From: a virus
DNA length: 64,000 nucleotides
Reading direction: 5' to 3' (one strand)
Virus record (IMG/VR): IMGVR_UViG_3300043777_000086
Span: 1-64,000 of that record
The notes under the pieces are model-generated. The model was not told where the DNA came from. It did not search any database and saw nothing but the letters and a program-made list of their open reading frames with translations. Position 1 is the stretch's first letter, and each line of letters starts with the position of its first letter. A program made the position numbers and the translations under genes. This document shows positions 29,173 to 49,417 of the stretch, piece after piece.

Positions 29173-31140
29173 TCACTGCACCTTGGCATTCCCGCTCACT
29201 GTAGCCTTTCCGGAGATCACCGATCCCCCGCCAGCCGGGGCTGCTCCGGAGAACTCAAACACCCCGATGCTCGGTGGATTGGGTCGCGTTAACCCGTCAG
29301 CGTCATACGTGGGGGCACCAGTGTGCGATCCGGCTCCATTCGCCGGGCTCGAGGAGGAGGATAGGTGAAAGTCTGGGGTGCTAGTAGAAACGATAGAAGG
29401 ATTCGAGTTTACCGTAGAAGTGATGGACGCGAACGACGGAGGAGCACCCACTCCGAACATCAGGTTTTTAGTTCCACTCACAGTCGTGCAGGTGGTTGTG
29501 CAATCCGACCCAGGCCCGGCCGCCAAGATGGTCACATACGATTCAGTGTTGGCAGGTTGATAGATGATGTTGTTCGTAAGTGTCAGCGTGCCGAAGCCAT
29601 TCTCTGGATAGAAGATGAAGCAGGAGTCCGCGCTCGCGTGTGCCGTTCCGCAGTTATACATCGTGTTGTTAAACACGTTGGTATTCCCATTTGCTAGCAC
29701 CTGCCACGCCTGAAGATACATGCCATTGGTAGCCCCGCCATCGGGTGGTTGGGGGCCTTGGCCGACATTATAGAGAATGTTGTTGTAAATGCTGATCCCA
29801 GTACCCTGCGACGAATCCATGTTGATGTAGACGATGCCATCACACGCGGTGTCGTGGATCACGTTGTCGTGGATCGCCACGCTATAGGACGTGTCCGGGT
29901 CGGTTGAACTGTTCTGTTGAAACCCGCGACATGCGGGCACATTGGCGATTGTGTTCCAACCAAACTCGATAACCGATGAGCCGTCTCCGAGGTAGAAGCC
30001 CTGCTGAAGCGCAGTAACCGTGCCGCTGGCGACGTTGGTCGATATATTGTGGATGTTGTTTCCGTGCCACGTCGCATTGTTCGAGAAGAACGTGGACGCC
30101 CCGCCCTGCTCCCCATTCGCATAGCTAGCGGTCGCTTCATTTCCAACTACCGTCATGCGCCTGGTTGAATAGAGGCTGACCGATTCATTTGGCCCTCCGA
30201 GAACCTTAAACGCGCCGATGACCCAGTCGGTAACCACATTTAGAACGGTCCAGACCGAGAATGTTCCACTGCCTCCAACCGTATCAACATTGACCACCAG
30301 CGTCGTCCCCGAGTCGCTGGTTACAAACCCCTCCATGAAGTCCGCGATGTTGGAGTTGTTGTAGATGAATACCCGATTCCCCGCGTTTATCCCGTCAGCG
30401 CTGTGCGTGGTGAAGGTCTTTGATCCGGTGCCGATTGTGACTGAGCTGCTCGGTATAGCGTCCCCTCCCGTTCCGATGACCTGGATACCTCCAGAGCAAG
30501 AGGGACTCGCCACGTCCTGACCGACCGTGACCGTATCCCCTGGATAGACCAACAGCGCCTTAGGTGTGCCGCTAGCTCCACTCAGGTTTTGATTGATCTG
30601 AAGGTAGGGATTTTCTCCGCCGATTGCGTTCGGGTCGCATGTGGTCAATGTCAGTGTCTCCACATAAACCGTATCGCCTGCCACAATCGTATTGGTTGCA
30701 TGCGAGATCGTCAGCCAGCATCCGCCCGCGAAGGTTCCGGGATTGGAGTCGCTGCCGCTGGTCGAGACGCAGTAGATGTTTCCAGATCGCACCGTCCACG
30801 GCACGGTGTTACTCGTGCCCGCTGCGGTCGTAAGCGTGATATTCCCCGTCGAGCATCCTGATCCGGTTTGGATTACGACCTTGTCGTACTCGGTCCCTGA
30901 AACCCCGCCCCATACGCCAGCCTGCCAGCTCTTGTATTGCGCGGGCGCTCCCCCTCCGCATGAAACCGTTGAAGAGCCTCGCGTACTTCCGAAGTTCTTC
31001 CCGTAGATGGTAACGTACACGCCTGAGCCTGATTCGCCCCCCGCATTCGGTCCACTGGAGATGTCCGTGAAGAAAATATTAGGAGGGCTCGCCCCAAGCG
31101 CTAGTTGGATGGAAAGGATAAAAACTAGAGCGCGCTTCAT
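29173..31140 (-). CDS. secreted-type IPT/TIG plus right-handed beta-helix (pectate-lyase-like) protein
   Basis: Signal peptide; VTIYGKNFG TIG domain; N-rich helix rungs (GNNIHN, NNILYN); DFHL..YDADGLTRP..GVFEF end. Confidence 0.85.
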   Translation of the reverse strand: MKRALVFILSIQLALGASPPNIFFTDISSGPNAGGESGSGVYVTIYGKNFGSTRGSSTVSCGGGAPAQYKSWQAGVWGGVSGTEYDKVVIQTGSGCSTGNITLTTAAGTSNTVPWTVRSGNIYCVSTSGSDSNPGTFAGGCWLTISHATNTIVAGDTVYVETLTLTTCDPNAIGGENPYLQINQNLSGASGTPKALLVYPGDTVTVGQDVASPSCSGGIQVIGTGGDAIPSSSVTIGTGSKTFTTHSADGINAGNRVFIYNNSNIADFMEGFVTSDSGTTLVVNVDTVGGSGTFSVWTVLNVVTDWVIGAFKVLGGPNESVSLYSTRRMTVVGNEATASYANGEQGGASTFFSNNATWHGNNIHNISTNVASGTVTALQQGFYLGDGSSVIEFGWNTIANVPACRGFQQNSSTDPDTSYSVAIHDNVIHDTACDGIVYINMDSSQGTGISIYNNILYNVGQGPQPPDGGATNGMYLQAWQVLANGNTNVFNNTMYNCGTAHASADSCFIFYPENGFGTLTLTNNIIYQPANTESYVTILAAGPGSDCTTTCTTVSGTKNLMFGVGAPPSFASITSTVNSNPSIVSTSTPDFHLSSSSSPANGAGSHTGAPTYDADGLTRPNPPSIGVFEFSGAAPAGGGSVISGKATVSGNAKVQ

Positions 31141-31952
31141 TTCACCACCGCCTTGCCTGAGATTGTAGCTGAACCGCTTATAGTCGACCCTCCTCCTGTT
31201 GTTGGGAGTGTGATATCGAAAGAGGTGAAGATGCAGCCCACGTCGCTCGAAGTACTCGCTACATTACTATAGGTCCCATTCCCAATATAGGAGCTGATCG
31301 ACGTTATCTGCTGCCACTCGTCGAACATATTCGCGTCGTCCAGGGATGTTACACCGGCGGTCCATCCGGAACCGGCCGCGTAGCTCACGGGCTCCTCGGC
31401 GGTCGTATCCGCACATGTGACCCAACCAAATTCATTCGCCTGGTGATTTATCCCGCTGCCAGCATTCCACGCGCAGTTGGTACACGTACCTCCAGTGAAT
31501 CCATTGTCATTGGACTTCAGGATGTCCGTACTCCCCCAGGTAGCTCCCTTGAATGCCGCGCACAGAACCACGATGGCCGTGCCAGTTGAGGTCGATATCG
31601 TCACCCCGCTGATCGATGAGGAATTGATTTTGTAGACCTGCTGGTGATACCAATGAACCGCGAGCGAGGTCCCGAAGGTCCATGTCTGCGACGCGGAGTC
31701 CGTGATCGTAAACGAACTTGCGTTTGAAAGCTCTACCGCACAGGCCACGAAATCCCCTGCTGTGGTGTTGACTGCCGTGCCAGTGGAGCTTCCTGCTGAA
31801 TTAGTGTGTAGTCCGAAATTACAGCCTAATGATGTGGCTGAGTCGGTCGCCGAGTCATTGACACAATCTACGATCGTGCCGCTAACTACATCCCGCGAAA
31901 CCGCCCCAAAGGCGACTACAGAAAATAGGATGGCTGCAACCAAGCATCTCAT
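31137..31952 (-). CDS. signal-peptide Ser/Thr-rich beta protein (virion decoration or fibre-like)
   Basis: MRCLVAAILFSVVAFG-A; TAGDFVAC..ITDSASQTW pattern. Confidence 0.75.
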   Translation of the reverse strand: MRCLVAAILFSVVAFGAVSRDVVSGTIVDCVNDSATDSATSLGCNFGLHTNSAGSSTGTAVNTTAGDFVACAVELSNASSFTITDSASQTWTFGTSLAVHWYHQQVYKINSSSISGVTISTSTGTAIVVLCAAFKGATWGSTDILKSNDNGFTGGTCTNCAWNAGSGINHQANEFGWVTCADTTAEEPVSYAAGSGWTAGVTSLDDANMFDEWQQITSISSYIGNGTYSNVASTSSDVGCIFTSFDITLPTTGGGSTISGSATISGKAVVK

Positions 31953-32728
31953 CGGATCGAGGGAGGCATCACGGGGTTATTCGTACCGGATGCTTTGAAT
32001 GCCGCCACCCCGCAACGATAATTGTCTGAGGAGTTGATACTAAACTGCATCGAGGCGGTGTAGTTGGTCGCCACGGATACGATTTGATCCTGACTTGCAG
32101 CAGGCTGAAAGCTTGAATCGTTGGTTTGCTGATTCTGAATGGTGAACCCGGTTGCCGCCGTAAAGGTTGCTGTTCCGCTACCTCCGTTTGAAACCGAGCA
32201 TGCTCCTATAATCACGTCATTGGCGTTGGTTGTGGTGATGGATCCGGGACTCATTGGAGTTCCGCCGGTACACGGAGCACAAGTGCCTCCCGCCCCGGCT
32301 GAGGTATCCACGGGAGAGGAGCTTACCACGCCGGAGTACTCCATCACTAGCGCCGTCAGGAATGCTGTGGTTCCGGCCTTGCAGGTCACTGTGAATGTTC
32401 CGGTTGACCCGCTCACTATACTCCACCAGAGCCCTATGCTTACATCTGTGGAGCCGGCCTGGTTGCCGGTAGCGGCAGCTACGTTGTTGTACGTATTACC
32501 GGACTGATTGTCGGTTGGGGTCGTCCAGGTCTGCGTCGTGGCAGCCGAGCACCAGATTACGATTAGATTCCCAACTGTTGGGGTTGACGTGAATGAACAT
32601 GCCTCGGAAGTAACGGCACTACTAGAGGAGCACACGCCTTGGGTTGTGGACCCGGATGTAGCTGGCTGAATGCGCGTAATTGTCGCCCAGGCGGGCAGGG
32701 AACATAAGACCAATAGAAGAGCCTTCAT
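31949..32728 (-). CDS. signal-peptide Ser/Thr-rich beta protein, same general family as its neighbour
   Basis: MKALLLVLCSLPAWA-T; GNLIVI..TDNQSGNTY..MEYSGV..ITTTNANDVII. Confidence 0.75.
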   Translation of the reverse strand: MKALLLVLCSLPAWATITRIQPATSGSTTQGVCSSSSAVTSEACSFTSTPTVGNLIVIWCSAATTQTWTTPTDNQSGNTYNNVAAATGNQAGSTDVSIGLWWSIVSGSTGTFTVTCKAGTTAFLTALVMEYSGVVSSSPVDTSAGAGGTCAPCTGGTPMSPGSITTTNANDVIIGACSVSNGGSGTATFTAATGFTIQNQQTNDSSFQPAASQDQIVSVATNYTASMQFSINSSDNYRCGVAAFKASGTNNPVMPPSIR

Positions 32729-32729: not shown

Positions 32730-35700
32730 TTAGTTCGCCTGGACCGCCAGGAGCCTGGGGATCGTTACCGTAACTAACTGAAGATTAGCCACCGCGGTAG
32801 CCGACGAAGTCGAGGCAATCTTGATATTCATCACATTACCTCCGGAGCAATTAGTCATGCTGGTCGAGTTCAACTGAAGCGTTTGGGTGTATGGCGTGTT
32901 GGCTGTGGTGCCCGTCGTCGTGGTGGTGAATGTCTGTGCTGTCTGAAAGCTAGGGTCGTCTGTGGTGGTAGAGCATCCGATCGCCACCGAGAATGCGATC
33001 ACCTGGGATCCAGTTGCTGCGTTCTGCGTGTAGTTGATGCGGACGTAGGGGTCGGTGGCGGTATCCCAATCCGAGGGAACCTCGAGCTGGGATTGGGCGC
33101 TCTGGACGCTTGCGGCGAACTGAAGATAGCCGGTCTGTAGATTGGTGCCGGTGCGGCAAAACGGGGTCGGTGCCGCGCTGGTTGGTAGCGACATTCCAGC
33201 TCCCGCCGTGGTGTTATTGCAGTTGGCCGGGACGATCTGCTTGACGTCAGGGAAGTCTATGAAGGTTGGGGATCCAGCCCCCCCGGATAGCGCTACCTGC
33301 TTGGCTGTGCCCGCAGCGCTTGAGCTTATGGCGGACGTGCTTGATCCGTATACGATCCCTCCGCTGGTTACCGAGGCCGGAATCGTTAACCCATTAATGC
33401 TCGTCTGATTCGCAAGGGCGGCCGGTAGATCAGCAGTCCCGATCGACTCATAACCCGGTGCCGCGGTCGACCCGGTGTTATTCATCCAGGCTTTATGGGC
33501 ACCGGCCGTGGCGAGCGTGGCGGTGATCGCCCCGGTCGAAGAAGAGTTCGAAATAAACGTTCCGTCCCCGCTGAATGAAGTTACCGGGGCTCCACCGATC
33601 GTCCCGGTGGCGATCTGCCCGGTGATCGAGGGCGATCCCGTTGCTGTGCTCCACGTAGCCTGGAAGTCAATCGTATGGCTCGTAGTGGTGTTAATGCTGA
33701 ATGTGGCGGTGTTAGCTAAGGACCCATCCGCTGGCGTCAGGGATGTTACTGAAGACGGATTGATCTGGAATGCACAAACAGCAATCGCCGTTCCTCCGGA
33801 TCCCGTGGTACGCGTGGTGATCTGACAGCCAGGCGTATTCCAGGATCCGTTCGTGACGGCTGTGGAAGGTAGAGTCAGCGCGCCGGTAGTGGCGATCGAA
33901 GATCCGTCGATTAATAACGTGATCGTCAGCGTTCCGATGTAAGCGCTCGGGATCGATACAACCCCTCCGAAGTTCAGGCTAAGCGGAGTATTCGTGATCA
34001 GCGTATTAGCGGGGATAGTCTGGGCTCCTCCGCCGATTAGGGAGGTGGCGGAAGTTCCTGTGTCCGTAGCTGAGGAGGTCGCATTGAATACGCTCGCTCC
34101 GGCAGATCCACCTCCGCCACCCCCGCTCGATGCGATCGTGAGTCCATTGGAGGCCGGGGTGAATGTCACGTTCGTGCCAGCTACGGGGGGAGCATTTCCG
34201 AAATAATTGGTGCCGTCCGACCAGAACGCGATCGGCTGATAGGAGATCAAGACAGGGACGCTCGATGCCCCATTGAAGTTCTTGGAATTTAGGGAAACCG
34301 TAGCTACTGAACTGCCGATGGACTCGATCGCCCCGTAGTATCCGTTGGTCGGGGATCCGTACAGGGTAACAGAGCAGGGAGAAGCGCAGTTCATTACCAC
34401 TGTCTTTCCAAGGTCCCCGGCAACTAGAGTGTAGTTTCCGGTCTGGGTATTTTCAGCCCCGCTCACCGTGCAGGTTGATCCGAGGGTGCAGGTCTGTCCG
34501 TTTACCGTGGAGGAGCTATTTGCCAGGGCTGCGTTCGGTACCGCCTCGTATGTGACGGTATTCGAGGCGGTGACCACAGGGACCGTATTTGTGGATGGCG
34601 TCGCCCCGTAGCTTACCCCGTTGACTTTAGCCACAGTGGCCGCCAGGGATCCGGCCGAGCTTATCACATCTCCGGTCAACTGAAGAGTGAACCAGGCGAA
34701 TTGACTAACGTTCGAGGTCGGCGCCGGGAACAACATGATCTGATTGGCGGCTGGAACAGCATTAGGAGTCTCAAGTAAGACCGAAGTGGTTATCGTTGTG
34801 GGGCAGGTCCACCCAAACGAGTTGCTACCTGCGGTTGCCGCAGTGCCCTGCGCGCACTGCCATGCTCCGGCTACGCCGCTGCCGGATCCTGTCGTAACTG
34901 AGGAGGTGGTGGAGATTGGCTCCGTGGTCGAGACCGTGGTTCCGTTGTCGGTTATGGAGGTGTTCTCGCAAGCCGAAGAGCCATTAGATGCCTGAACAAC
35001 CCCCGCTGATCCCGAGGGGATACACCCAGATCCAGACCCGGTGTACTGCGGGATATTCAAAGTCCCGGAGGTGAACGTGGCTGCACCTGAAGTACCCGTG
35101 GTGGTGAGGGTGAATGGTGCCGTGAAAGCCCCGTTGCCGTTCAGGAACGTGGTCGTGGTTCCTGGGAGGATCGGAAGGAATCCGTGGGCGCTAGTGGAGG
35201 CGTTGTTCGTGGTGATATTGGTCAGTGCCAATGCCGCTTCCGCTAAAGTTCCCCCTCCGGCCGAGTTCTGATGGTTATGGTTGGCATTTACGAACGAGGC
35301 GATCGTAGGCGTGGTCAGGGTTTTATTGGTAAGGGTATCGGTTGTGCCGCGACCGACAAAAGTGTCCGTCGCATCCTGAATAGTCCAGACCCGATTCGCC
35401 GTAGGAGTGCCAGTCAGCTCAATCGAATCGGTACCAAAGGTCGACGACCCATAGAGATAGATATTTCTCCACGCAGTCGCCGCGGCGCCGAGGTCGAGGG
35501 TGGTCTGCGGTATCAGTGATAGGTTAATGGAAACAGAAGCCAAGTTCGATAGGGCTGTATTAGCACCACCCCCACCACTGCCGCAATCCGATCCGGTACC
35601 GGTGATCAAACCTGCGGAATTGGCGTGTAGACATTGGATTCCGGAAGCAACATCACTGAGCGTCAACCCCGAAGCCGTGGGGTTGGTCAACGTCTTGTTG

Positions 35701-36806
35701 GTTAGTGTGTCCGTGGTAGCCCGACCCACGAATGTGTCAGAGGAATTCTGGATGGTCCAGACACGCGCAGCGGTCGGGGTCCCGGTGATTTCGATCGAGT
35801 CCGTCCCGAAGGTGGTCCCTCCGTAGAGAAATATATTAGTGAACGGAGTTGAGGCGGCGCCCAGCGCTACTCCGGCCTGCGGCACGAGCGACGTGTTGAT
35901 CGAAACGGACGCGAGGTTTGACAGTGCCGTGTTAGCTCCGCCGCTACCCGTTCCGCAGTCAGTCCCCGTGCCTGTTATGAGGCCGGCTGAGTTGGCATGC
36001 AAACACTGTATCCCAGAAGCCACATCGCTCAGCGTCAGCGCCGATACGCTCGGGGCTGTGATCGTTTTATTGGTTAGAGTTTGCGTAGCTGCGATTGCAG
36101 TCAGAGTCCCACCCCCCGTAGGGAATGTCCACGTACTCGAAGAGGGGATCGCAAAGGTGGGGTTGAAGGCGCCCGTGAAGGTTACGTTCCCGGATAGGGT
36201 CAGAGTGTCTGATCCGTTATTAACCCCCGTCCCTCCGTTGGTGCCCCCAAGGATCCCGGTTACGTCTGCGGTAAGGGACACCAGCGAGCTAGTACAGACC
36301 TGCGTGCTGCCCGCGAAGTGGCAGATGCCCACACCTGGCGCGATTGCCGTCACCACATTGGCCGTGACGATGCCACTGTCCACTGGTGTATTGGTGGCTC
36401 CGAACCCGACCAGGTGGCCGTTGGTCCCAGCAAAAGCCGTGCCGTTCAATAGACCGGCATTGATAATTCCACCGCCCGTAAAGGTCAGCGTCGTCCCCGT
36501 GCCGACCGTGTACGTGTTGCCGGTGGTGTTGGTCCCTCCGGTTAGCGTCGTCCACGCCGCGGATACCGTGCCGCCGCCCATCGTACTCCAGGTGTTTGTC
36601 GCAGAGCAGTAATAGGGTGTGGCGGCCCCCGCCGTGAAGACCACATACACCTGACCGTTACCAGGTACGCAGGTGGACGGAAGCCCAGACCCTGTGACGA
36701 TCCGGCGAGTGATAGCAGATCCTCCGCCTGGGGTGATCTGGGCCTGCAAAAGTCCGAACCCGGACAAAAGCAGGACCAGAACCTTAAAGTACGTCGCCAT
36801 CCGCAT
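32730..36806 (-). CDS. long tail-fibre-like protein (1358 aa) with N-terminal signal peptide
   Basis: TLTNKT repeats, GGTG motifs, internal ~125-aa duplication. Confidence 0.8.
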   Translation of the reverse strand: MRMATYFKVLVLLLSGFGLLQAQITPGGGSAITRRIVTGSGLPSTCVPGNGQVYVVFTAGAATPYYCSATNTWSTMGGGTVSAAWTTLTGGTNTTGNTYTVGTGTTLTFTGGGIINAGLLNGTAFAGTNGHLVGFGATNTPVDSGIVTANVVTAIAPGVGICHFAGSTQVCTSSLVSLTADVTGILGGTNGGTGVNNGSDTLTLSGNVTFTGAFNPTFAIPSSSTWTFPTGGGTLTAIAATQTLTNKTITAPSVSALTLSDVASGIQCLHANSAGLITGTGTDCGTGSGGANTALSNLASVSINTSLVPQAGVALGAASTPFTNIFLYGGTTFGTDSIEITGTPTAARVWTIQNSSDTFVGRATTDTLTNKTLTNPTASGLTLSDVASGIQCLHANSAGLITGTGSDCGSGGGGANTALSNLASVSINLSLIPQTTLDLGAAATAWRNIYLYGSSTFGTDSIELTGTPTANRVWTIQDATDTFVGRGTTDTLTNKTLTTPTIASFVNANHNHQNSAGGGTLAEAALALTNITTNNASTSAHGFLPILPGTTTTFLNGNGAFTAPFTLTTTGTSGAATFTSGTLNIPQYTGSGSGCIPSGSAGVVQASNGSSACENTSITDNGTTVSTTEPISTTSSVTTGSGSGVAGAWQCAQGTAATAGSNSFGWTCPTTITTSVLLETPNAVPAANQIMLFPAPTSNVSQFAWFTLQLTGDVISSAGSLAATVAKVNGVSYGATPSTNTVPVVTASNTVTYEAVPNAALANSSSTVNGQTCTLGSTCTVSGAENTQTGNYTLVAGDLGKTVVMNCASPCSVTLYGSPTNGYYGAIESIGSSVATVSLNSKNFNGASSVPVLISYQPIAFWSDGTNYFGNAPPVAGTNVTFTPASNGLTIASSGGGGGGSAGASVFNATSSATDTGTSATSLIGGGAQTIPANTLITNTPLSLNFGGVVSIPSAYIGTLTITLLIDGSSIATTGALTLPSTAVTNGSWNTPGCQITTRTTGSGGTAIAVCAFQINPSSVTSLTPADGSLANTATFSINTTTSHTIDFQATWSTATGSPSITGQIATGTIGGAPVTSFSGDGTFISNSSSTGAITATLATAGAHKAWMNNTGSTAAPGYESIGTADLPAALANQTSINGLTIPASVTSGGIVYGSSTSAISSSAAGTAKQVALSGGAGSPTFIDFPDVKQIVPANCNNTTAGAGMSLPTSAAPTPFCRTGTNLQTGYLQFAASVQSAQSQLEVPSDWDTATDPYVRINYTQNAATGSQVIAFSVAIGCSTTTDDPSFQTAQTFTTTTTGTTANTPYTQTLQLNSTSMTNCSGGNVMNIKIASTSSATAVANLQLVTVTIPRLLAVQAN

Positions 36807-37191
36807 GACATGAATCTCCTGCGCTCTCGATCACGATCTGAAACTGACCCGCCCAATACACGTTTGCTTTTTGAGAATCGCCTATCGCCCAAGCTTCACC
36901 GGGGTCGATCGCTCGAATTACGCCGCCCGTAATTGGGCCACCGGGGGTCTGTATGAATGTGCTGCCTTCATTGAAGGGGGCAACCCCCCAGCACACAAAA
37001 ATACGCCCGGTGTTATTTGCATTCGCCTTGATCTCCAGTTTATTGAGTTGTAGATCATCCTGGCTGTTAGGGTTGCCGAAGGCATTGGCTGGTAGATTAG
37101 AGGTGAGCCGTAGCGCATGCGTGTCTCCGATCCCGGTCGGGGCCAGAAGTCCAAAGAACACCGGCTTAGAGAGTGGTTGAAATTGTGCCAT
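36784..37191 (-). CDS. hypothetical virion-region beta protein
   Basis: IKANANNTGRIFV..IDPGEAW motif. Confidence 0.65.
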   Translation of the reverse strand: MAQFQPLSKPVFFGLLAPTGIGDTHALRLTSNLPANAFGNPNSQDDLQLNKLEIKANANNTGRIFVCWGVAPFNEGSTFIQTPGGPITGGVIRAIDPGEAWAIGDSQKANVYWAGQFQIVIESAGDSCHADGDVL

Positions 37192-37194: not shown

Positions 37195-37395
37195 TTAATC
37201 CCTGCGCTTTGCGCGCTTCCCTTTCCTCTTACCTGAAGATCTTCCGACAACCGCATTGGCGGCCCTAATGGCGCTACCTTCGGATGCCCCGCGCTTGAGC
37301 ATCGAATCCGCTACGTGCGACCACTGCCTTTTCTTCTTTGGGCTACTGGCTTTACGCGTGAACCTCTTGGCTGACTGTGGAGTCCATGGCATCAC
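37195..37395 (-). CDS. small basic phage protein (ChaB-like MPW..RQW..AIRAANA)
   Basis: Recognisable motif; Lys/Arg-rich. Confidence 0.7.
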   Translation of the reverse strand: MMPWTPQSAKRFTRKASSPKKKRQWSHVADSMLKRGASEGSAIRAANAVVGRSSGKRKGKRAKRRD

Positions 37396-42000: not shown

Positions 42001-42228
42001 CAGCACGGACTTAGTCAGAAACGAGCCGGTCGTTTTCGCTGGACGCTCCGGCGGAGGGGACGCCGCGGAGTCCTTTTTTAGGTAACGATCGAATGAGGAT
42101 CCGAAGTCGCCGACTGGAGCGGGGGGCTTGTCAGGCTTCTTGGGTTGGCTATCAGGCGGGTTCCCAGCCTTTTTTTGCGACAGATAGCGATCAAACGCAG
42201 ACCCGAAGTCACCCTGCTGGTCCGCCAC
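39055..42228 (-). CDS. large putative ejection (DNA-transfer) protein
   Basis: 1057 aa, helical; VNDAYG..FLAPGW C-terminal region. Confidence 0.65.
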   Translation of the reverse strand: MADQQGDFGSAFDRYLSQKKAGNPPDSQPKKPDKPPAPVGDFGSSFDRYLKKDSAASPPPERPAKTTGSFLTKSVLTIGGGKGFSERYEDSGFRKALEAIIPESVRQSHEGDYISRFLAETYKAAPGALDFMTSPAGIGLITLHVTPQTRRFAPILDYGFTAFAGKQAVDALKAYRDDPRPENLSHVVVALAQAYSGVKGAKTIEKIEAPAAAARLKESVGERAKSEVGRREAVERLKSTAPYTEEGDKPPSATKILESKVDVLNEIAAPKGFWEKKLKLDAVHQTPIVGDVARMLHIKTPELVSISKDFVEDRAAFESENKFRVESVLHPIKESVPAEERTIYKMGADGKPEPTNQMAAVIQGTAPKSSLSPKGQQAVEVIQKLNHESANLLKQYYGNDLQLADPNEYLTQIWEMPNRGTPAGRAAQTLMHDRFLKQKVFEDYEAGIKAGWVPKYNDVLDVVRVRWNYLTRVIANQRMANTLNDIGAVATEQQKNALHLDDWVKLDDAPALNRAAFQASEEEIKQIRGKDVRIEKSFYRYQPVYVHPQMAMAAKAIFGSRFNSPAFKTIDQVRSFGKRLNLYGSLFHNWAITEQSQAMTASTSGALKGLTRWWFADPEIYKGARTGIAEVIGKGKGDELPIFRLNSDFVRDMLHHGVRLEIDDAERSSRNFMQNMGKDQTGWKKAVTAPIRAMGHMNHVIEKSLWDFYLPANMAHSYESGVSSMIERAQPRTPAEVTAIKRAVAAQVNDAYGAISWEKMLVNPKVAQMMNWIFLAPGWKISNLRVFTQAFEGSLGREVATNYARGAALTWFLSMQVGSYLSSSIFKNKDKNGKEGGHFTWDNPGVPIRFGSHDTGLTSNSFAIPMGYMPNGSERYVNWGKGLTDPVKLAMDPHDWMMNALSGPVQAAGAAAYGVDPVTGFEYVDKYGTPLQKNIQRMELALPMFVPFSARDPIRAINDKRFSQLYPMPGGASMLFNVAGLPTRQGLSYTRAKEAYISAMKSNDIEAANIILKVADSNKLSPRAIIQEWRKYLGTQRKRAQPLPEVYNVKGQVVGGR

Positions 42229-42229
42229 T

Positions 42230-43906
42230 TCACGGCCTCTTCTTCAGCCACGGTAGCGTTGAGTCGATCTCGTCTTCTGGAATAGGGGCGTCTGCGTGAT
42301 CGGCATCGTCCTTAATTGAGTCAGACTCATCCTTATTCAGGAAGGCAAGCCCAGCGGTACCGAACGCCGCCCCAATCGCATTGATCCTTCCCCTGGCATC
42401 CTGCTTAATGAGATTCGCGCGCTCCTCGATCTCGCGCTGGATCTGATTCTGCCGGTTATTGAATTCTTCCGAGGTGAGTTGGCGCTTAACTGGGGGATTC
42501 TTCGTGGTGTCAAGGATCGTTGGATCTTTTCGCAGTGCATCGATTTTGGACTCGCGCTCCTTGTATAGCGCTTCAAGCCGACGCGAGGTGTCCGCTTGCT
42601 CAGCTATCGCGGCCTTGCGTGCGTAGTTGAAGTTTGCCTGGAAAGTGTTGGTCTGATCCTTCCACTGACGGAGTGGCTTGCCATTATCGTCTTTGGCTAC
42701 CCGCCACTTACCCTCAGGACTTCGTTCCTCGATAACGTTCTTTCCGGGGCTATCCGGGTCCTGAACCACGCGCGTGGCATAGGGGGCCTTGTCTGGTTTG
42801 CGGTAAACCGAAGGCTGCTCGCTCGGCGGTAGGAACTGCCCGGTCTGCGCGTCTACAAACCCCGCCGGGATCCCCGGTCCTCCCATTGAGTACTGAAGCT
42901 GCCTGGGCTTACCATCGACCATCATCTCCTTGGGCTCAGTGACTAAGTTATTGGTGTTTAGCCAGTCGCGCTCCTCATCAGCCAGCCGCTGTGTACGGAC
43001 CGCTGGCAGCGCAGGCTCCTTAGTCGGCGGCGGCGCCGCAGAGCCGGCCTCCACGGGAAGCGGAGGGGCGCCCTGCGCAGCCGTAGGGGCGGATTGATCT
43101 GAACGCACAGGAGGAGGAGCGCCTCCCGCAGTACGGTTATGAAATTCCGCAAGCCTCTTATCCGCGTCGATCTTCTTCTGCTCGGCCTCGGTTGGCTGCC
43201 GCGGCTTGGGCTTCGTGTCATACGGAGATAGGATCTGAGAGATCGATTCCTTACCGCCGCCGAAGCGATCGAAGGCGGGGATGAACGGCTGCACCGCCTT
43301 GGCGGCATCCTCCTTTGTGAATGGCTGCCCAGCCTGCTTGGCTGCGTCCTCGGCATCCGCCACGGCCTTCTGGGCCTGTCCTACCAGTTGCGTGCGCTGA
43401 CCTTGAATTGTATTCTGCGGAAGCGATAGCTTCGCACCCCAGTCCGCCATGACTTTCTGCATTGCCCCGATGTCGGACTTGGATTTAGAGACCTCACCGC
43501 CAGCTAGGCCGCTGAATACCTTATTGAGCGTTCCGAGGATCGGATTCTGTTTGGCTCCGTCCTTAGTGGCGTCCTGAGCCTCAGAGATCATCGCTTTGGC
43601 GGCATCGCGCTCAAGCTGCGACTTGAGTTCCGGAGGCACCTCTGGGTTCGACATCTGCGCGTTCACCCAGTTAGAGAAACCCTGAGTGAATTGGTACTTC
43701 TGCATCTCAGTCGCCATGGCCTTTTGTGCGCGGCCCTTGCCGACGCCTTCTAGGAATTTAGATAGGATGCCGAGCGTTGCACCCCCCTTACCTTGATAGC
43801 CACTGAATGGTGTGGTGCTCTCATGGGGCGACTGAACGATTTGGGGTTGGATCGCCTGAGCGAATGGTCCGGTAAATTGCTGAGGTCCGTAGGGATTATC
43901 AGGCAT
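42230..43906 (-). CDS. putative ejection protein
   Basis: GGAGGT RBS before ATG 43906; Q/A/K-rich coils. Confidence 0.65.
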   Translation of the reverse strand: MPDNPYGPQQFTGPFAQAIQPQIVQSPHESTTPFSGYQGKGGATLGILSKFLEGVGKGRAQKAMATEMQKYQFTQGFSNWVNAQMSNPEVPPELKSQLERDAAKAMISEAQDATKDGAKQNPILGTLNKVFSGLAGGEVSKSKSDIGAMQKVMADWGAKLSLPQNTIQGQRTQLVGQAQKAVADAEDAAKQAGQPFTKEDAAKAVQPFIPAFDRFGGGKESISQILSPYDTKPKPRQPTEAEQKKIDADKRLAEFHNRTAGGAPPPVRSDQSAPTAAQGAPPLPVEAGSAAPPPTKEPALPAVRTQRLADEERDWLNTNNLVTEPKEMMVDGKPRQLQYSMGGPGIPAGFVDAQTGQFLPPSEQPSVYRKPDKAPYATRVVQDPDSPGKNVIEERSPEGKWRVAKDDNGKPLRQWKDQTNTFQANFNYARKAAIAEQADTSRRLEALYKERESKIDALRKDPTILDTTKNPPVKRQLTSEEFNNRQNQIQREIEERANLIKQDARGRINAIGAAFGTAGLAFLNKDESDSIKDDADHADAPIPEDEIDSTLPWLKKRP

Positions 43907-44000
43907 ACGCCACCTCCGCGGTGGTAATCTTAGTATCGAGCTGCCGTAGCGGGCTAACGCCACGGCAACTCTCACCAGAGCGATCTACAGGGAGACCGTC

Positions 44001-44588
44001 GTGGCTAAACGTAAGTTTATACCGATGCCGACCATAAGCCCCGAAGAGGAAAGACTCTTCTGGAGTTTGGTCAGGAAATACGAAGATCCAAGGAAGTGTT
44101 GGGAGTGGCTGGGGAACCTGCATAGCGACGACAGAGGCAGGATCTGCCTCAGGAGTCAACACTATATAGCTCCGCGCATGTCCTTCCACCTCACCTACGG
44201 AGGTGATCCGGAGTGGCTCTTTGTGTGTCATACATGCGACAACCCGATCTGCGTAAATCCCGATCACTTCTTCCTCGGTACGCACGGGGACAATAACAGA
44301 GACTCTATCGCCAAGGGTCGCAGGTGCGGCGTGTATGAAAAATGGAGGAATGATAATCCACAGGCAGCGCACGCCGCCGCCCAGCGCGTAGTTCAATGGA
44401 GACAGCAGCACCCAGAAAGTAATCGCGGTGAAAACGCAAACGGAGTAAAGCTTACAACGGAGTATGTTCTCGCTATACGGGCGAGAGCAACTAAAGGAGA
44501 AACTCATACTTCTCTCGCTAGGGAATATGGAGTTGCACCGCAAACCGTGGATGGCATAGTCAGCAGAAAACACTGGAAGCATATTTGA
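44001..44588 (+). CDS. HNH homing endonuclease inserted antisense in the virion operon
   Basis: CWEWLG, VCHTCDNPICVNPDH, GENANGVKLT..LAREYGV HTH. Confidence 0.93.
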   Translation: MAKRKFIPMPTISPEEERLFWSLVRKYEDPRKCWEWLGNLHSDDRGRICLRSQHYIAPRMSFHLTYGGDPEWLFVCHTCDNPICVNPDHFFLGTHGDNNRDSIAKGRRCGVYEKWRNDNPQAAHAAAQRVVQWRQQHPESNRGENANGVKLTTEYVLAIRARATKGETHTSLAREYGVAPQTVDGIVSRKHWKHI

Positions 44589-44592: not shown

Positions 44593-45411
44593 TCAGCATT
44601 TTGCATGCAGCGCTGTGTTCTCCGTTACCTGAGTGGAAATCGCGGTTCGTAAGGCGAAATCAAACACTGGCCTAAGCGCCCAACGCATGACTACGCTGTG
44701 CTTTGCCTTAGCGGCAACCGACTTACCAACCCGGCAGTACAGCCACATAACTATTCCACCAAACACCGTCCGCCTGAACGGGCCGTTAAGGAATTCGCGC
44801 ACGATAAATGTACGCGGATCATGGGTTCCATAAATCACTTCCGCAATCCAACATCCGACACCCGGAGCAAATACGCTACCAAGAGCACCACCGGCGCTTC
44901 CTGCCAACTCTCCGAGGAAAGATAGAGTTGACGCCTTACCTTGACTCTGCGCCTGCATCGTAGCTGCATTGGAACTCGACGCCCCTCCGGCCGCTGAGAT
45001 CGCAGCGCCCACGTCGCTTAGGCCGAAGGACTCAATACCCTGCCCCAGTTGCGCAAGCTGCGCCGGAGCGCCTTGAGTTAAAGCATTCCTAGTCTGCGCG
45101 ATCTGCGTCTGCGTTCCGGTGTCCACGTTCGCCAGAGCCACCTGCTGTGCGGCCCCTGGTCCAATATCCTCCATAATCTGACCCTTAGCTTGCGAGGCCC
45201 CCTGCGTAATGTTTGTGAGGTACGGAGCGAGGGCTGTAGAGATCGCAGTGGGGTTATTTGAAGAGAGGGCCGTAAGTTGACTAATAAGCGGCTGCATCAA
45301 CTGGGAACCCTGCGCCTGGTTGTCCTGAGCCAACTGATTTTGCTGGCTTTCAATTGCCAACTGCTGGGCTGTGATTTGCTGCTGGGTTCCTGTGCTACTT
45401 GGTGACGACAC
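44593..45411 (-). CDS. Gln/Ala/Gly-rich pilot/ejection protein with a C-terminal CWIA (CFI-box-like) domain
   Basis: Low-complexity N-terminal part, then GVG-CWIAEVIYG..R..L..Y. Confidence 0.7.
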   Translation of the reverse strand: MSSPSSTGTQQQITAQQLAIESQQNQLAQDNQAQGSQLMQPLISQLTALSSNNPTAISTALAPYLTNITQGASQAKGQIMEDIGPGAAQQVALANVDTGTQTQIAQTRNALTQGAPAQLAQLGQGIESFGLSDVGAAISAAGGASSSNAATMQAQSQGKASTLSFLGELAGSAGGALGSVFAPGVGCWIAEVIYGTHDPRTFIVREFLNGPFRRTVFGGIVMWLYCRVGKSVAAKAKHSVVMRWALRPVFDFALRTAISTQVTENTALHAKC

Positions 45412-46327
45412 GTCGCATCACCTCCTCTGCTTTTGCCTGATCCTCTGGATGATGCTCTAGCCAATGTCTTAGGCGGTGACAGACAACGCACAGCATGTCA
45501 CATTTAACGACTTCTGCCTGGTAATCTTCACGTGTCAAACACTGAGATAAACACCTAACCTTGTCTTGCGGATCCCGATGGTCAAAGTCGAACACCGCCG
45601 GAATCGTTGAATGTAGGCCACAGGACTGGCAACGGTCATGCCTGGACTCCATAGCCGCTCGCTTCCACTGCTCTCTTTGTATTTGATTGGCGGTCTTCTT
45701 GCGTGGGGCTATATTCCGTTTACGTTGCTCGCGTAACTCATTTCTAACCTGCTGTTTAGATCTGAGGCGACATTTCATACATACTGAATTGCAAGTCTTC
45801 ACTCGATCACACCGAGAGCACAAATGACATTTACGCTGTCTCAGCTTGTCGAATTCACCTCTACACGATTCGCATAAGCGAGCGCGGTATTCCTCAGGGG
45901 TGGTGTATACCACAACGCGGCAGAGTGAGCACAATGGCGGAAGTCTGTATTTAAATTTATGGAGATCAGCGAAGCAATCGGAGCAAAACCTTCTTCGGTA
46001 CTGTACGCCCTTGAATGTAGCTACCGGAAATTGATCGATGGGTTTTACTGTAGCGCACTTTATGCATTGCCCTTCTGTAGCTCCGGTATCCCAGCGCCTT
46101 CGGCGTGGAGCGGCAGGTTTTTCTCCTACGCTAATTCTGTACCTCTCATGCTTATATTTACTTTCGCAGGAGCGACACATTCTTCTACGATTGCCAGATC
46201 TACTGGCCAATGCAAAGTTTTCAATTGGTTGGCGTTGGCCGCATTTTAAGCAGGAAAACTCCAGCAATCCGGTATCCCAACGACTTCCACGGCGCTTAGA
46301 GTAATCGTGTTGGGCGGTAGCTTGCAT
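45395..46327 (-). CDS. multi-Zn-finger HNH endonuclease
   Basis: Duplicated RWDTG-CxxC modules; CQSCG..DFDHRDP..KCDMLCVVCHRLRH. Confidence 0.8.
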   Translation of the reverse strand: MQATAQHDYSKRRGSRWDTGLLEFSCLKCGQRQPIENFALASRSGNRRRMCRSCESKYKHERYRISVGEKPAAPRRRRWDTGATEGQCIKCATVKPIDQFPVATFKGVQYRRRFCSDCFADLHKFKYRLPPLCSLCRVVVYTTPEEYRARLCESCRGEFDKLRQRKCHLCSRCDRVKTCNSVCMKCRLRSKQQVRNELREQRKRNIAPRKKTANQIQREQWKRAAMESRHDRCQSCGLHSTIPAVFDFDHRDPQDKVRCLSQCLTREDYQAEVVKCDMLCVVCHRLRHWLEHHPEDQAKAEEVMRRVVTK

Positions 46328-46999
46328 CTAAACCTCCACGAGATCCTCTGCGTGAATCATGTTCTTTGCGAGCCCCCACTGCTCCCTTGTCATCACGGCA
46401 GATTGGTAGTCGCAGGGCTCGATAGTGCCGTCCTCCTTCATCCAGGGTCCGTACACCGGCAACACTCCGACCACCTGGAATCCCACGCGCTCCGCAAACC
46501 GGCAGGCCATTTTATTGGGCTTCGGTGTGGTGCCGTACAGGACTTGTAGGTTCAGGGTCCTGAATCCCCAGTCGATCATCATCTCGGCGAACTGGTACGG
46601 CAGCATCGTGCGATGAGCGAAAGGTAGGAACGCAAATCCAACTTCAGCTTTGAATCGCGGCTGCTCCTTGATGTTCCCGAGGAATGTGATCGTGGCGATC
46701 GTCCCGAACCCAGCGATATCCAACTTCTCTCCGTTCTGGATCAGGCACCCGATTACCACATTCCTTGGGCTGCCGTCAGCGTTCGCATCCGTGGCCCAGT
46801 CAAGTAGCCAGCGCAACGTCGGGACGTGGCCGGGCCACACGATATGCAAGAGCTTGGCGGTGCTCAGGGCGATCCAGATCCGCGCCATCATGATCTCGGA
46901 AACGGCGCTCTTATCCATTCTCAGGATGTGCAGGATCGTCCCGTCTTCGAGCTTCTTAGAATCCGTCCAGTTCCAACCGTTTGCGTCAGCCATTGGCAT
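46328..46999 (-). CDS. GNAT-fold protein of the podovirus tail/ejection cluster
   Basis: EVGFAF..LYGTTPKPNKMACRFAERVGF. Confidence 0.75.
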   Translation of the reverse strand: MPMADANGWNWTDSKKLEDGTILHILRMDKSAVSEIMMARIWIALSTAKLLHIVWPGHVPTLRWLLDWATDANADGSPRNVVIGCLIQNGEKLDIAGFGTIATITFLGNIKEQPRFKAEVGFAFLPFAHRTMLPYQFAEMMIDWGFRTLNLQVLYGTTPKPNKMACRFAERVGFQVVGVLPVYGPWMKEDGTIEPCDYQSAVMTREQWGLAKNMIHAEDLVEV

Positions 47000-47010
47000 T
47001 ATGATACCCC

Positions 47011-47039
47011 TTGACGATGACGGTATACTCGTCCACAAT
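47011..47039 (+). promoter_or_regulatory. putative sigma70 promoter, possibly leaderless transcript
   Basis: TTGACG-17-CACAAT, 8 nt before ATG 47048, no RBS. Confidence 0.5.
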
Positions 47040-47047: not shown

Positions 47048-47707
47048 ATGACCCCCATCCGTCGCGCCCTCGCTGCTATCTCCCGCTTTGTCCGAGTTCG
47101 GATCTTTAGGCGTCCGGAACCTCCGATCGTAGAGCGGCCACCTGACGGCGCGATCGTATTCCCAGAGCTTCCCTCAAGTAGAGCGCTTGAAGAGTATGGA
47201 TCCGGAACTCAGGCGGTGGCTATCAGCACACTTCCTCGGCCGCCGATATCTGACCTCATTCCGCTTAGGCCGGCGTCCTGTCTCTATGAGGTCACCTTCC
47301 AGCCACGGCCGTACTGGCTATTCGACTCGATCCACCTAACGGCTATCTGCGGGTCCGCGCTGCGGGTGATCGCGTTCCATGAGGACGTTTCGCACTGCAT
47401 CTTCCAGGTGACCGTCACTCCGATCCCGATGCAGCTCGACCACGCGATGCTATTGGGGTTGCATCGCGCGCGGGCAGAGGCGCCAGTCACGCTACGGATT
47501 GAGAGCCGGGTTACGTTTGAGGTCTACGAACTCCGCGCCACCTACCTGCGACCGGACTTCCGGCGCGAGCAGGCTTCGGACGGGACGATGATGCTGGTGT
47601 TCAACGACCCGTTCTACAAACCGATAGCCGAATCCGAATTCGGATTACTTCCCTCAGCGCCGCACCACCGCAAGATCTACGGACCCGGCGCGGACGTGGG
47701 GTACTAG
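47048..47707 (+). CDS. antisense-oriented hypothetical protein with a nozzle-repeat-like beta-sandwich
   Basis: Fills an otherwise empty gap; has its own promoter. Confidence 0.7.
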   Translation: MTPIRRALAAISRFVRVRIFRRPEPPIVERPPDGAIVFPELPSSRALEEYGSGTQAVAISTLPRPPISDLIPLRPASCLYEVTFQPRPYWLFDSIHLTAICGSALRVIAFHEDVSHCIFQVTVTPIPMQLDHAMLLGLHRARAEAPVTLRIESRVTFEVYELRATYLRPDFRREQASDGTMMLVFNDPFYKPIAESEFGLLPSAPHHRKIYGPGADVGY

Positions 47708-48021
47708 GGCTTAGTGACAGCCGGCGGGACTGTAGGGCAATTCCAGGTCTTGTCTTTGTTGACATGACATCCGGGACCGGCCCCATATTCCTTTATGAGC
47801 GTATTCTCGTAATCGACCCAGATCTTTTCTTCTTTTTGAGCCTCTTCGCGAGCCGCCACAAGGCGCAACTGGGCCTGCTGAAGCTCTAACTCCGCGCTCT
47901 GTACCGCCAGCATCTTCCTGGAGATTTCCTCATAGCGCTTCTCTGGGATAGGCGTAGGGGTGGTCGTAGGGGCAGCCTTATCATCCAGAAACATACAGAT
48001 CGCCGCAACGAATAAAATCAC
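47704..48021 (-). CDS. coiled-coil protein with hydrophobic N-terminus (fibre chaperone-like)
   Basis: GAGGT RBS; follows the fibre gene. Confidence 0.65.
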   Translation of the reverse strand: MILFVAAICMFLDDKAAPTTTPTPIPEKRYEEISRKMLAVQSAELELQQAQLRLVAAREEAQKEEKIWVDYENTLIKEYGAGPGCHVNKDKTWNCPTVPPAVTKP

Positions 48022-48031
48022 TAGGTCACCT

Positions 48032-49417
48032 CTAGCAATGCGTTATGATTCCGTCAGAGCTTGCGAACAAGGAGGTCGGGGTTCCTGTACAGGTAACTCC
48101 CGCTACTCCGCCGATTGTCATCCCCGTGGGCGTGAAGTTCCAGATTAGGGACCCAAACCCAGAGGTGTAAACCTGTAAGGCAATTGTGGATTGCGTACCA
48201 TTAGGCCCCATGTCCGCGATAGCAGCGCCGGAACCATTGAATATTTCCACCGCCCCTCCCGACCCTGAGAAACTTATCTCTACCTGGTTGGTGCCCGCAT
48301 TCTGCATGAAAATTCCGGTGGAGTTCGCAACCACCATATTCTGACCGGATGAGTTATTCAGGATCAACTGTCCCGCGCCCGCTCCACTAGGGGTAATAGA
48401 AGCTAGTTCGATACTAAATCCTGAATTCCACAACTCTAGGTCGGTGCTGGATTGAACTCCGGTAGAGGCACCCATAGATGACTTAGCCGCCCCAGTGTTG
48501 TCGAAAACTATTAATCGACCTCCCACGCCGGCTGTGAATGTGCCTTCGATCTGATTTACGCTGGTGTTTTGAACAAAGAATCCAGAGGAGTTAGCTATAA
48601 ACGTATTACTTGCTACGTCTAAATCCACAGCTACATCGAGCTGATGAGCCGGGTTAGTGGTTCCAATTCCCACGAGACCTCCGGAGGTGATCCTCATCTT
48701 CTCGATGTTATTACCACCACTCAGGGCAGTAGCGAAGATAAGAGTTCCAGAATAGTCTCCCGCTATAGAGTTCTCCTTATACCCCCAAATTTCGGCGGAA
48801 TCCGCAAACGACCCGGTGCCTACGTAATCAAACCCGAGAGAGATATGCCCACCAATTCCAGTCGCATGAGTTGAGGAACTATCCCGGATGACTGCCTGGC
48901 CGATGTTGGCAGAGCTTATACCCTGTACAGTTAGAACACCTATGGGGGCTACTCCGATTCCCACCTTACCGCCGAAGAAGTCGAAATTAAAGGCATTGGT
49001 ATTGAATGTCATATCGCCGGCGTTTGAATCATCTATAGACCACACAGTACCGCCAGTGGGATTCTCTAGGCGAATTCCATTCGACGCATTCAGAACATTA
49101 TCCTGTAAGACCAACCCAGGTTCCGTGGGACCCGGAGAAAGAACAATGACCGAAGACAGGTGAGCGCCGCTTACATTTCCAGGACTCAGTACGATCGATC
49201 CATTACTGGACGAACGACCGGTGATTACTGAGGCGTTATTGCCGGATATCCCAAGGTCCATATAGGTTGCGCAGGAAGGGGTCTCATCACAGATCCGCAA
49301 TTCTCCAGGGGCTGGCCCAGTCGGAACGGCTAGGATTTTTACCGGAGAGGATAGGCTTATCTGTGCGTGAGCGCACGAAGCCAGCGCTAGAATGGAAAGA
49401 ACTAATGCGTATATCAT
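48032..49417 (-). CDS. tail-fibre-like protein with signal peptide
   Basis: MIYALVLSILALASCAHA-Q; GKVGIG and EKMRITSGGLVGIGTTNP fibre motifs. Confidence 0.8.
   Translation of the reverse strand: MIYALVLSILALASCAHAQISLSSPVKILAVPTGPAPGELRICDETPSCATYMDLGISGNNASVITGRSSSNGSIVLSPGNVSGAHLSSVIVLSPGPTEPGLVLQDNVLNASNGIRLENPTGGTVWSIDDSNAGDMTFNTNAFNFDFFGGKVGIGVAPIGVLTVQGISSANIGQAVIRDSSSTHATGIGGHISLGFDYVGTGSFADSAEIWGYKENSIAGDYSGTLIFATALSGGNNIEKMRITSGGLVGIGTTNPAHQLDVAVDLDVASNTFIANSSGFFVQNTSVNQIEGTFTAGVGGRLIVFDNTGAAKSSMGASTGVQSSTDLELWNSGFSIELASITPSGAGAGQLILNNSSGQNMVVANSTGIFMQNAGTNQVEISFSGSGGAVEIFNGSGAAIADMGPNGTQSTIALQVYTSGFGSLIWNFTPTGMTIGGVAGVTCTGTPTSLFASSDGIITHC

Follow-up and report, generated by a model that had tools for sequence, protein, structure and literature searches.

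Probable Sec export and disulfide-bonded folding of fibre-, lectin- and glycanase-like proteins from the late region of a tailed phage

Exported phage proteins and the present locus

Particles of tailed phages are taught as being built entirely in the cytoplasm. In particular, the fibres and tailspikes of podoviruses, such as T7 gp17, P22 gp9 and those of HK620, LKA1 and K1F, have no signal peptides and are folded and attached in that compartment, while the phage proteins known to be exported are spanins, signal-arrest-release (SAR) endolysins, T4 RI, T5 Llp, the exclusion lipoproteins Cor and Ltp and, in filamentous phages, pIII and pVIII. Here we analyse a tailed-phage contig of 106,152 bp (IMG/VR virus record IMGVR_UViG_3300043777_000086), the first 64,000 bases of which (positions 1-64000) are referred to as the window. 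A sequence-only reading of the stretch at 29173-49417 had pointed to Sec-type leaders on consecutive fibre-like proteins of the late operon, and had proposed that these proteins are exported and oxidised, and are then either attached to the virion or act as secreted adhesins or depolymerases. We find that 13 late-region proteins of this phage begin with signal-peptide-like leaders, and consider it probable, judging from the sequence, that the leader-bearing late proteins are exported through the Sec pathway and fold oxidatively in the periplasm.

The export and oxidation part of the earlier proposal is supported because the leaders are conserved in five protein families, the number of mature cysteines is even in 13 of 13 late-region proteins, conserved cysteine pairs lie in the N-terminal domains, and the candidate host lineage encodes both a glutaminyl cyclase and DsbA-like proteins. 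What was computed directly is the presence of the leaders and their persistence among homologues, the even cysteine counts, the predicted folds and the arrangement of domains. Altogether, the leader-bearing set amounts to 7,191 aa, or 20.3% of the genome. In other words, a fifth of a phage genome, every recognisable fibre-like gene included, appears to be addressed to the periplasm and to bear the mark of disulfide folding. Late in infection, the 13 proteins would be translocated into the host periplasm via cleavable signal peptides, and trimming of the leaders would mostly expose an N-terminal Gln, which a host periplasmic glutaminyl cyclase could cyclise. The exported proteins would then fold in the periplasm with all of their cysteines in disulfides, work from outside the cytoplasm on the envelope or on exopolysaccharide, and be freed at lysis. 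Namely, action outside the cytoplasm is suggested because the set comprises fibre-, lectin- and glycanase-like proteins. Translocation, cleavage, the formation of pyroglutamate and of disulfides, and every step after export are what we infer.

The closest described phage is the Cellulophaga phage phi18:3 (Pachyviridae, NC_021794), in which three consecutive large proteins, gp085-087, carry Sec-type leaders ending at Gln at position +1 and are annotated as 'virion structural protein', 'structural protein' or 'tail protein' from tandem mass spectrometry (MS/MS), while its other MS-detected virion proteins are leaderless. Unlike the present phage, phi18:3 infects a Bacteroidota host, has three such genes rather than thirteen, and has 0, 1 and 3 cysteines in these proteins, so that no disulfide signature is seen. 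We found neither sequence similarity between gp085-087 and the proteins studied here nor a published discussion of the gp085-087 leaders. Among cellular proteins, the MAT fibres that Bdellovibrio bacteriovorus displays on its surface combine a signal peptide, a conserved N-terminal domain of ~130 aa and variable trimeric tips (Caulton et al. 2024, PMC10769870). Two of our families, represented by the proteins at 48032-49417 and 75475-78003, share this plan at the level of architecture only, and the MAT fibres are cellular proteins on the predator's own surface, whereas here we deal with phage late-operon genes. Finally, prophages of Porphyromonas gingivalis contain five genes in which predicted cleavage by signal peptidase I exposes Gln, which has been read as an adaptation to host secretion (Matrishin et al. 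2023, PMC10367356). These are likewise phage genes with a Gln exposed by predicted cleavage, but they are not fibre-like, have no assigned function and belong to Bacteroidota, while our host lead is in Terriglobia. What is more, the cyclase of the Terriglobia lead is of the plant/Xanthomonas type (PF05096), as opposed to the mammalian type of P. gingivalis.

When compared with T7 gp17, P22 gp9, the HK620 and LKA1 tailspikes and the K1F endosialidase, the present proteins are alike in their apparent combination of an N-terminal particle-binding type of module with exchangeable distal domains and in their beta-helix glycanase-like bodies, but those classical proteins are leaderless and cytoplasmic, whereas the fibre-like open reading frames (ORFs) here all have leaders. 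The known exported phage proteins likewise use the host Sec pathway, and pIII and pVIII are even virion proteins; the exported proteins of tailed phages, however, are small, serve lysis or exclusion and do not resemble fibres, and filamentous phages, which are assembled at the membrane, do not build a capsid in the cytoplasm. In the literature, we found no description of exported tail fibres, nor of a whole set of fibre-, lectin- and glycanase-like proteins addressed to Sec. What the present case adds is a probable Acidobacteriota host, the involvement of a fifth of the genome, a clean cysteine parity, and an invariant Gln at +1 that can be tied to a cyclase of the candidate host lineage.

Leaders, cleavage sites and cysteines

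In total, 14 ORFs have signal-peptide-like N-termini, 13 of them in the late region (12 of Sec type and one of lipoprotein type) and one in the early region. Leaders were assigned by rule, without a trained predictor, the criteria being a basic n-region, a core of 7-15 hydrophobic residues, and small residues at positions -3 and -1. Five of the 12 Sec-type late ORFs lie inside the flagged stretch, at 29173-31140, 31137-31952, 31949-32728, 32730-36806 and 48032-49417, all on the minus strand, and each begins with a basic n-region, followed by 9-14 hydrophobic residues and then a small-x-small motif for cleavage, so that the five leaders named in the sequence-only reading are indeed canonical. 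A sixth lies mostly inside the window (62545-64695), although its leader falls just past the window's end, and the remainder are found at 65383-65808, 67555-68208, 69969-73838, 73839-74711, 74721-75473 and 75475-78003. The ORF of lipobox type (68205-68747) may encode a protein of the spanin or the exclusion class. The early one, at 19521-20309 (minus strand, 262 aa), lies outside the late operon and adjoins a tnpB gene; its leader ends G|Q, it has 3 mature cysteines, and it has no Pfam match. On the other hand, the hydrophobic N-terminus noted for a chaperone-like ORF ending at 48021 was not borne out as a leader: this 105-aa ORF (47704-48021, minus strand) starts at GTG with a short run of 11 hydrophobic residues, has no basic n-region and no cleavage motif, and offers an alternative ATG at codon 10, and is hence not a canonical signal-peptide gene.

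Could the leaders be an artefact of wrongly chosen start codons or of chance hydrophobic N-termini? In its favour, a public gene caller shortened two such genes, beginning one at residue 113 (P0066) and the other at residue 125 (P0001), in both cases downstream of the leader; in the protein collection, 29173-31140 and 48032-49417 occur only as such leaderless calls of 543 and 337 aa. That said, the longer forms are right because homologues align from residues 2-20 and bear leaders of their own. The flagged five all begin at ATG and abut or overlap the upstream stop, with 4-nt overlaps at 31140/31137 and 31952/31949, and purine-rich, Shine-Dalgarno-like stretches precede some of them; the first alternative start in frame comes 30-70 codons later or falls within the hydrophobic core. 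In this sense, the concern that true starts might lie downstream of the hydrophobic segments is answered by the ATG starts, the tight operon packing and the leaders of the homologues. As for chance, the rule picks out 20 of 129 ORFs, approximately 15 of them convincing, as compared with 5 of 385 internal-Met controls, an enrichment of about tenfold (Fisher p = 2e-6 on 15/129). We regard the artefact explanation as largely refuted and hardly credible.

A survey of related proteins shows that leaders persist in diverged homologues of five families, i.e. that the leader is preserved as a feature while its sequence drifts. In the family that shares the N-terminal domain of the 842-aa protein at 75475-78003 (g75475), all 19 full-length homologues (33-66% identity) have a leader followed by Gln at +1. 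Both close homologues of 48032-49417 (g48032), namely P0002 and P0003, keep the leader and Gln at +1, although only 5-6 residues within the leader itself are identical. In the family of 31949-32728 (g31949), 9 of the 11 homologues shown have a leader, and in that of 29173-31140 (g29173) at least 111 of the 149 best homologues do. In addition, the copies of the 842-aa and of the 1358-aa protein (32730-36806; g32730) in L005, a related IMG/VR contig, keep their leaders. In the phage itself, Gln stands at +1 in 9 of the 14 leaders as assigned.

These data also bear on the alternative that the N-termini are uncleaved signal anchors, which would keep the proteins attached to the periplasmic side of the inner membrane, as is the case for SAR endolysins and i-spanins. 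Hydrophobicity of the N-terminus does not by itself tell a leader from an anchor, and a 226-aa paralogue in L005 does have a longer, more anchor-like hydrophobic segment. In the present set, however, the hydrophobic cores are short, at 9-14 residues, with a small-x-small motif within the next 3-6 residues, and the conserved domain begins right at +1. Moreover, the Gln at +1 that is invariant in 19 of 19 g75475 relatives is sensible only if the preceding bond is cut. Permanent anchoring is, for these reasons, improbable.

The second line of evidence comes from the cysteines. An even-cysteine bias is an established signature of exported proteins in disulfide-making bacteria. The mature cysteine count is even in all 13 late-region leader proteins, ranging from 2 to 32, while among non-leader ORFs 41 counts are even and 47 odd (Fisher p = 1.5e-4). 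The cysteine content of the exported set is 0.9-3.3 per 100 residues, and in both g48032 and g75475 the conserved pairs sit within the conserved N-terminal domains. The bias is also seen in the beta-helix family of 29173-31140, with 94 even and 17 odd mature counts, although homologue counts rest on approximate cleavage sites.

The third line concerns the host. The contig contains a solo tnpB (20399-21571, minus strand; OrfB_IS605 and Cas12f1-like TNB domains) that is 67% identical to a copy in a Terriglobia metagenome-assembled genome (G001), the next best match being 47%. This likeness, the sole lead to the host, appears to be a sign of recent exchange with a Terriglobia lineage, and the host is thus probably a soil Acidobacteriota. 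Two DsbA-like proteins are encoded in the Terriglobia genome, as is a glutaminyl cyclase (PF05096, 305 bits) that itself begins with a leader. When 400 kb of this genome were sampled, a small-x-small motif followed by Gln was seen in 12 of 46 leader-like ORFs as compared with 23 of 365 other ORFs at equivalent positions, a fourfold difference. The preference for Gln at +1, or Q-rule, was described as a peculiarity of Bacteroidetes (Bochtler et al. 2018, PMC5837995), yet our counts suggest that this pyroglutamate habit may extend beyond Bacteroidota and be shared by the Terriglobia lineage. A phage ORF resembling M28 peptidases (104887-105762, plus strand; E 7e-6) was considered as a cyclase of the phage's own and was dropped, as it has no sequence match in the PDB and a weak PepT-like match. 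The M28 fold also houses the mammalian-type glutaminyl cyclases.

Several points speak against export and periplasmic folding, and should be noted here. Namely, Sec export of fibre-like late proteins is not established tailed-phage biology, so its prior is modest. The rule set used for leaders is crude and also picks up some membrane proteins, leaders are missing from a few homologues (P0059 and, as called, P0052), and the host assignment is based on one mobile gene. The early-region ORF 19521-20309, with its 3 mature cysteines, is the sole odd-numbered member of the set. Finally, extracellular virion proteins could gain disulfides after release, which makes even parity alone no proof of folding in the periplasm.

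Fibre-like, jelly-roll and beta-helix proteins and their possible site of action

As far as can be recognised from sequence and predicted fold, every fibre-, lectin- and glycanase-like protein of this genome bears a leader. The recognisable set consists of three tail-fibre-like proteins (75475-78003, 32730-36806 and 48032-49417), two proteins with IPT and beta-helix domains (29173-31140 and 62545-64695), and several small jelly-roll proteins. Since all of the fibre-like ORFs carry leaders, we do not class them as ordinary tail fibres, but their fibre-like nature, as first proposed from motifs, is well supported: TLTNKT occurs three times in 32730-36806, and G-I-G-T-T-N-P in 48032-49417. Pfam and PHROGs searches with the flagged leader proteins gave no family above threshold.

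The longest fibre-like protein of the window, that of 1358 aa (32730-36806, minus strand), has a leader ending A|Q and 22 mature cysteines, and is a paralogue of the 842-aa protein (BLASTP 3e-20). In L005, the leader of its homologue ends G|Q, and the upstream neighbour is shared between the two phages. In the present phage this is a leaderless protein of 135 aa (36784-37191, minus strand), the gene of which overlaps the start of the fibre gene by 23 nt; in L005 the pair is adjacent as well (19565-20005, and 19978 onward). The 461-aa tail-fibre-like protein (48032-49417, minus strand; leader ending A|Q, 4 mature cysteines) has an N-terminal domain of ~130 aa with a Cys-x5-Cys loop, followed by a variable distal part: as compared with P0003, the N-terminal domain is 59% identical and the remainder 21%. 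The region of its G-I-G-T-T-N-P motif is common to distant matches which are tail-fibre proteins with an S74 chaperone domain (PF13884). No S74 domain was detected among the proteins of the window, which is a further difference from the MAT fibres. The 842-aa protein, in turn, contains two copies of an N-L-S-D-L ... A-R-x-N-L-G-L repeat (residues 137-196) that are shared with a virion short tail fibre of known structure (PDB 9zd7, E 1.5e-18) and with annotated Pseudomonas phage tail fibres. Proteins that share its N-terminal domain measure 538-1439 aa, are encoded on contigs of ~100 kb and in two cases include Pectate_lyase_3. Relative to L005, the N-terminal stretch through the fibre repeats aligns closely and the rest poorly (37% identity overall), and the adjoining tail-type genes share 65% and 70% identity with their L005 counterparts. 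On the basis of these comparisons, both families follow the plan of receptor-binding proteins, with a conserved domain of ~110-130 aa right after the leader and exchangeable distal parts.

Among the smaller proteins, that of 259 aa (31949-32728, minus strand; leader, 8 mature cysteines) is predicted by AlphaFold2 (AF2; pLDDT 85) to consist of two jelly-roll beta-sandwiches, the C-terminal one TNF/C1q-like. Its model matches proteins of uncultured Caudovirales and actinophage 'minor tail proteins' in BFVD (E 3.6e-11, TM 0.74) and, weakly, TNF/C1q-like knobs in the PDB (Z up to 5.8), and its nearest ESM Atlas clusters are 91-100% viral. The genome has a single leaderless paralogue of any leader protein, a protein of 204 aa encoded at 82264-82878, two genes after the capsid gene. 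Its C-terminal domain is 33% identical (E 1.5e-12) to the C-terminal half of a further leader-bearing protein, of 290 aa (73839-74711). In L005 (11500-12820), the leaderless gene is followed by the 226-aa paralogue with the long hydrophobic N-terminus. Taken together, these two pairs suggest that one binding domain is used in both compartments.

Where would the exported proteins act? One possibility, which would make this case categorically new, is that the fibres at 75475-78003, 48032-49417 and 32730-36806, perhaps together with the small lectin-like and glycanase-like proteins as further appendages, are receptor-binding proteins of the virion that mature in the periplasm, trimmed to pyroglutamate and disulfide-bonded, and dock onto tail or head sites of finished cytoplasmic particles when holin lesions merge the two compartments, or just after release. 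We put this forward tentatively, as a reading that is possible but well short of favoured. Several observations speak for it. The 842-aa gene follows directly after tail/connector-type genes with a 4-nt overlap, both in this phage and in L005; the fibre repeats of its product are those of a solved virion fibre and of Pseudomonas phage fibres; and in both g48032 and g75475 a conserved N-terminal domain is combined with swapped tips. In addition, since 82264-82878 is the only leaderless paralogue, the genome shows no other recognisable fibre, and phi18:3 provides leader-bearing proteins annotated as virion or tail components from MS/MS. On the other side, MS detection in a purified lysate is no proof of structural attachment, and no paper was found that describes exported parts assembled into a tailed phage. 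Presence on the particle would have to be granted by analogy with phi18:3, a leaderless 1556-aa protein (50030-54700) could itself be the adsorption device, the beta-helix family described below also stands alone among ordinary chromosomal genes in the locus that was read closely, and the closest published analogue of the architecture, the Bdellovibrio MAT fibres, is cellular.

Provided that export does take place, action away from the particle has a better claim than docking, although we would place it slightly below an even chance. Here, the proteins would be free enzymes and adhesins, or would be displayed by the infected cell in the manner of the Bdellovibrio fibres, for example clearing or masking receptors and matrix.

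The beta-helix proteins are particularly relevant for this question. The 655-aa protein (29173-31140, minus strand; 12 mature cysteines) consists of a signal peptide, an IPT/TIG domain, a right-handed parallel beta-helix and a short C-terminal tag. Its AF2 model (pLDDT 85, pTM 0.86) shows a leader helix, the IPT/TIG domain and the right-handed helix, and a Foldseek search of the PDB returned GH136, the PL9 enzyme Pel9A, the GH120 enzyme XylC and rhamnogalacturonan lyase (E 2e-9 to 1e-7), followed by phage tailspikes (1e-5 to 1e-4). A profile built from 71 family members also matches rhamnogalacturonan lyase, at 3e-9. Note that these model-based matches would indicate fold, not function. A 39% identical paralogue of 716 aa (62545-64695, minus strand), the C-terminal two thirds of which are encoded in the window (62545-64000), has a leader ending A|Q, 6 mature cysteines and a Big_2 domain at residues 521-587. 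The family counts 2,504 representative clusters, mostly leader-bearing, and was seen in 3 of the 121 Acidobacteriota genomes that were sampled; the one locus examined in detail (G058) has it among ordinary chromosomal genes. No homologue was found in the candidate host genome G001. Because the family is mostly leader-bearing and the G058 copy has such a chromosomal setting, a role as a secreted adhesin or depolymerase is at least as likely for the beta-helix proteins as attachment to the virion.

The same data raise the possibility that the leader genes are accessory 'moron' genes acquired from bacteria, i.e. secreted enzymes or adhesins that aid the lysogen through matrix remodelling, nutrition or exclusion and are unrelated to the particle. 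The size and mostly leader-bearing character of the beta-helix family, its presence in Acidobacteriota including the chromosomal G058 copy, and the bacterial glycanases that are the closest solved structures of 29173-31140 are all in line with this explanation, and the Q-rule leader genes of P. gingivalis prophages have been read in this way (PMC10367356). However, the genes here are part of a minus-strand late operon with translational coupling and are not separate cassettes, two of the families, that of the jelly-roll protein and that of the g75475 N-terminal domain, look specific to phages, and the fibre families bear phage fibre repeats. Furthermore, no integrase was identified among the ORFs scanned, in a scan that was not exhaustive. 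We therefore hold the moron explanation to be unlikely, though somewhat less so than uncleaved anchors.

The gene next to 29173-31140 encodes a Cys-rich leader protein of 271 aa (31137-31952, minus strand; 8 mature cysteines), which over its last 70 residues shares 31% identity with the C-terminus of the 655-aa protein. The two are otherwise dissimilar, and both end in a Gly-rich linker and a hexad-like tag of ~14 residues (29173-29260 and 31137-31220), disordered in the 29173-31140 model (pLDDT 43). Similar tags are seen in the beta-helix homologues P0084, P0163 and P0177 and in a member of the 259-aa family, P0053, and many other beta-helix homologues end in N-P-P-T-N-L-x-V-x-V-Q, which resembles a lone first strand of an FN3 domain. 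Such a tag or strand may serve docking or sorting.

What would follow from these readings? If docking were true, it would constitute a two-compartment assembly route undescribed for any tailed phage. It would explain how phages get disulfide-bonded appendages, and phage engineering or the expression of receptor-binding proteins would in such cases need to take place in the periplasm. A cultured phage, phi18:3, allows the docking question to be tested directly. On a more cautious reading, we are dealing with a heavy investment by a phage in exported, oxidatively stabilised sugar-binding and sugar-cutting proteins, which is relevant to the way in which phages gain access to matrix-rich soil bacteria, get away from them or shield them. 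There is also a consequence for annotation, in that such genes are routinely called tail fibres and have their leaders trimmed off by gene callers.

Genome layout, relatives and further genes

The first 29 kb of the contig encode, on the plus strand, replication and recombination proteins, namely DnaB, a superfamily-2 helicase, a RecT-like protein, and HNH and GIY-YIG nucleases. The late region runs on the minus strand from ~92 kb down to 29 kb, with the flagged stretch at its distal end, and encodes the large terminase, the portal and an HK97-type major head protein, from which we conclude that the record is a tailed phage. The major head protein is ~28% identical to its counterparts in the Myxococcus phages Mx8 and Mx9. 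A prophage search with the capsid protein across the genome collection found none, and two metagenome scans gave no matches. Scans of IMG/VR yielded just two relatives, L004 and L005, and no relatives for the g48032 or the 259-aa (g31949) family. A tblastn search of 50,697 phage records matched only g75475, via its fibre repeats, and gave no match for g48032, g31949, g29173 or the TLTNKT-repeat segment of g32730.

Interspersed with the leader genes are those of large leaderless proteins. Three low-complexity proteins of 557, 1057 and 581 aa (37392-39065, 39055-42228 and 42230-43975, minus strand) had been read as ejection proteins, and the proteins of 202 and 1556 aa at 49425-54700 (minus strand; 15 cysteines in the latter) as a nozzle. 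These roles would follow from position and composition in the first case and from size and position in the second, and family searches gave no matches for any of the five proteins. The claim that the nozzle and ejection proteins have no leader proved correct for 50030-54700, 42230-43975, 39055-42228 and 37392-39065, and the 202-aa protein is leaderless as well. The three proteins at 37392-43975, together with a scaffold-like ORF and a 391-aa ORF beyond the window, have zero cysteines, unlike the exported set.

Within the late region, an island on the plus strand (57178-60471) encodes a glycosyltransferase-sulfotransferase fusion (PF17784, 1.7e-36; PF02709) and an APS kinase (APS_kinase, 3e-56), and an ORF with weak likeness to PAPS reductase lies at 66857-67597 (minus strand). 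Judged by their domains, the three could form a sulfation kit, candidate targets of which are the exported proteins, a host polysaccharide or something else. Two ORFs resemble GNAT acetyltransferases (PF13302, E ~4e-6). One of them, at 64692-65336 (minus strand), overlaps the start of the beta-helix gene 62545-64695, and the other, at 46328-47038 (minus strand), is 1 kb from 48032-49417.

Nuclease-like ORFs of HNH, GIY-YIG or Cys-rich type are found at 44001-44588 (plus), 45395-46327 (minus), 5427-6260 (plus), 10812-11879 (plus) and 80102-80968 (minus). They break into the structural and replication modules, one of them on the opposite strand within the late operon, and look like insertions of the homing-endonuclease type. 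Finally, the first ORF of the contig (22-996) encodes a repetitive protein, and the first 30 bases recur at 121, 265 and 361 and then at 106048 and 106096. In other words, tandem repeats span the contig ends, and the contig may therefore be circularly permuted or cut within a repeat array.

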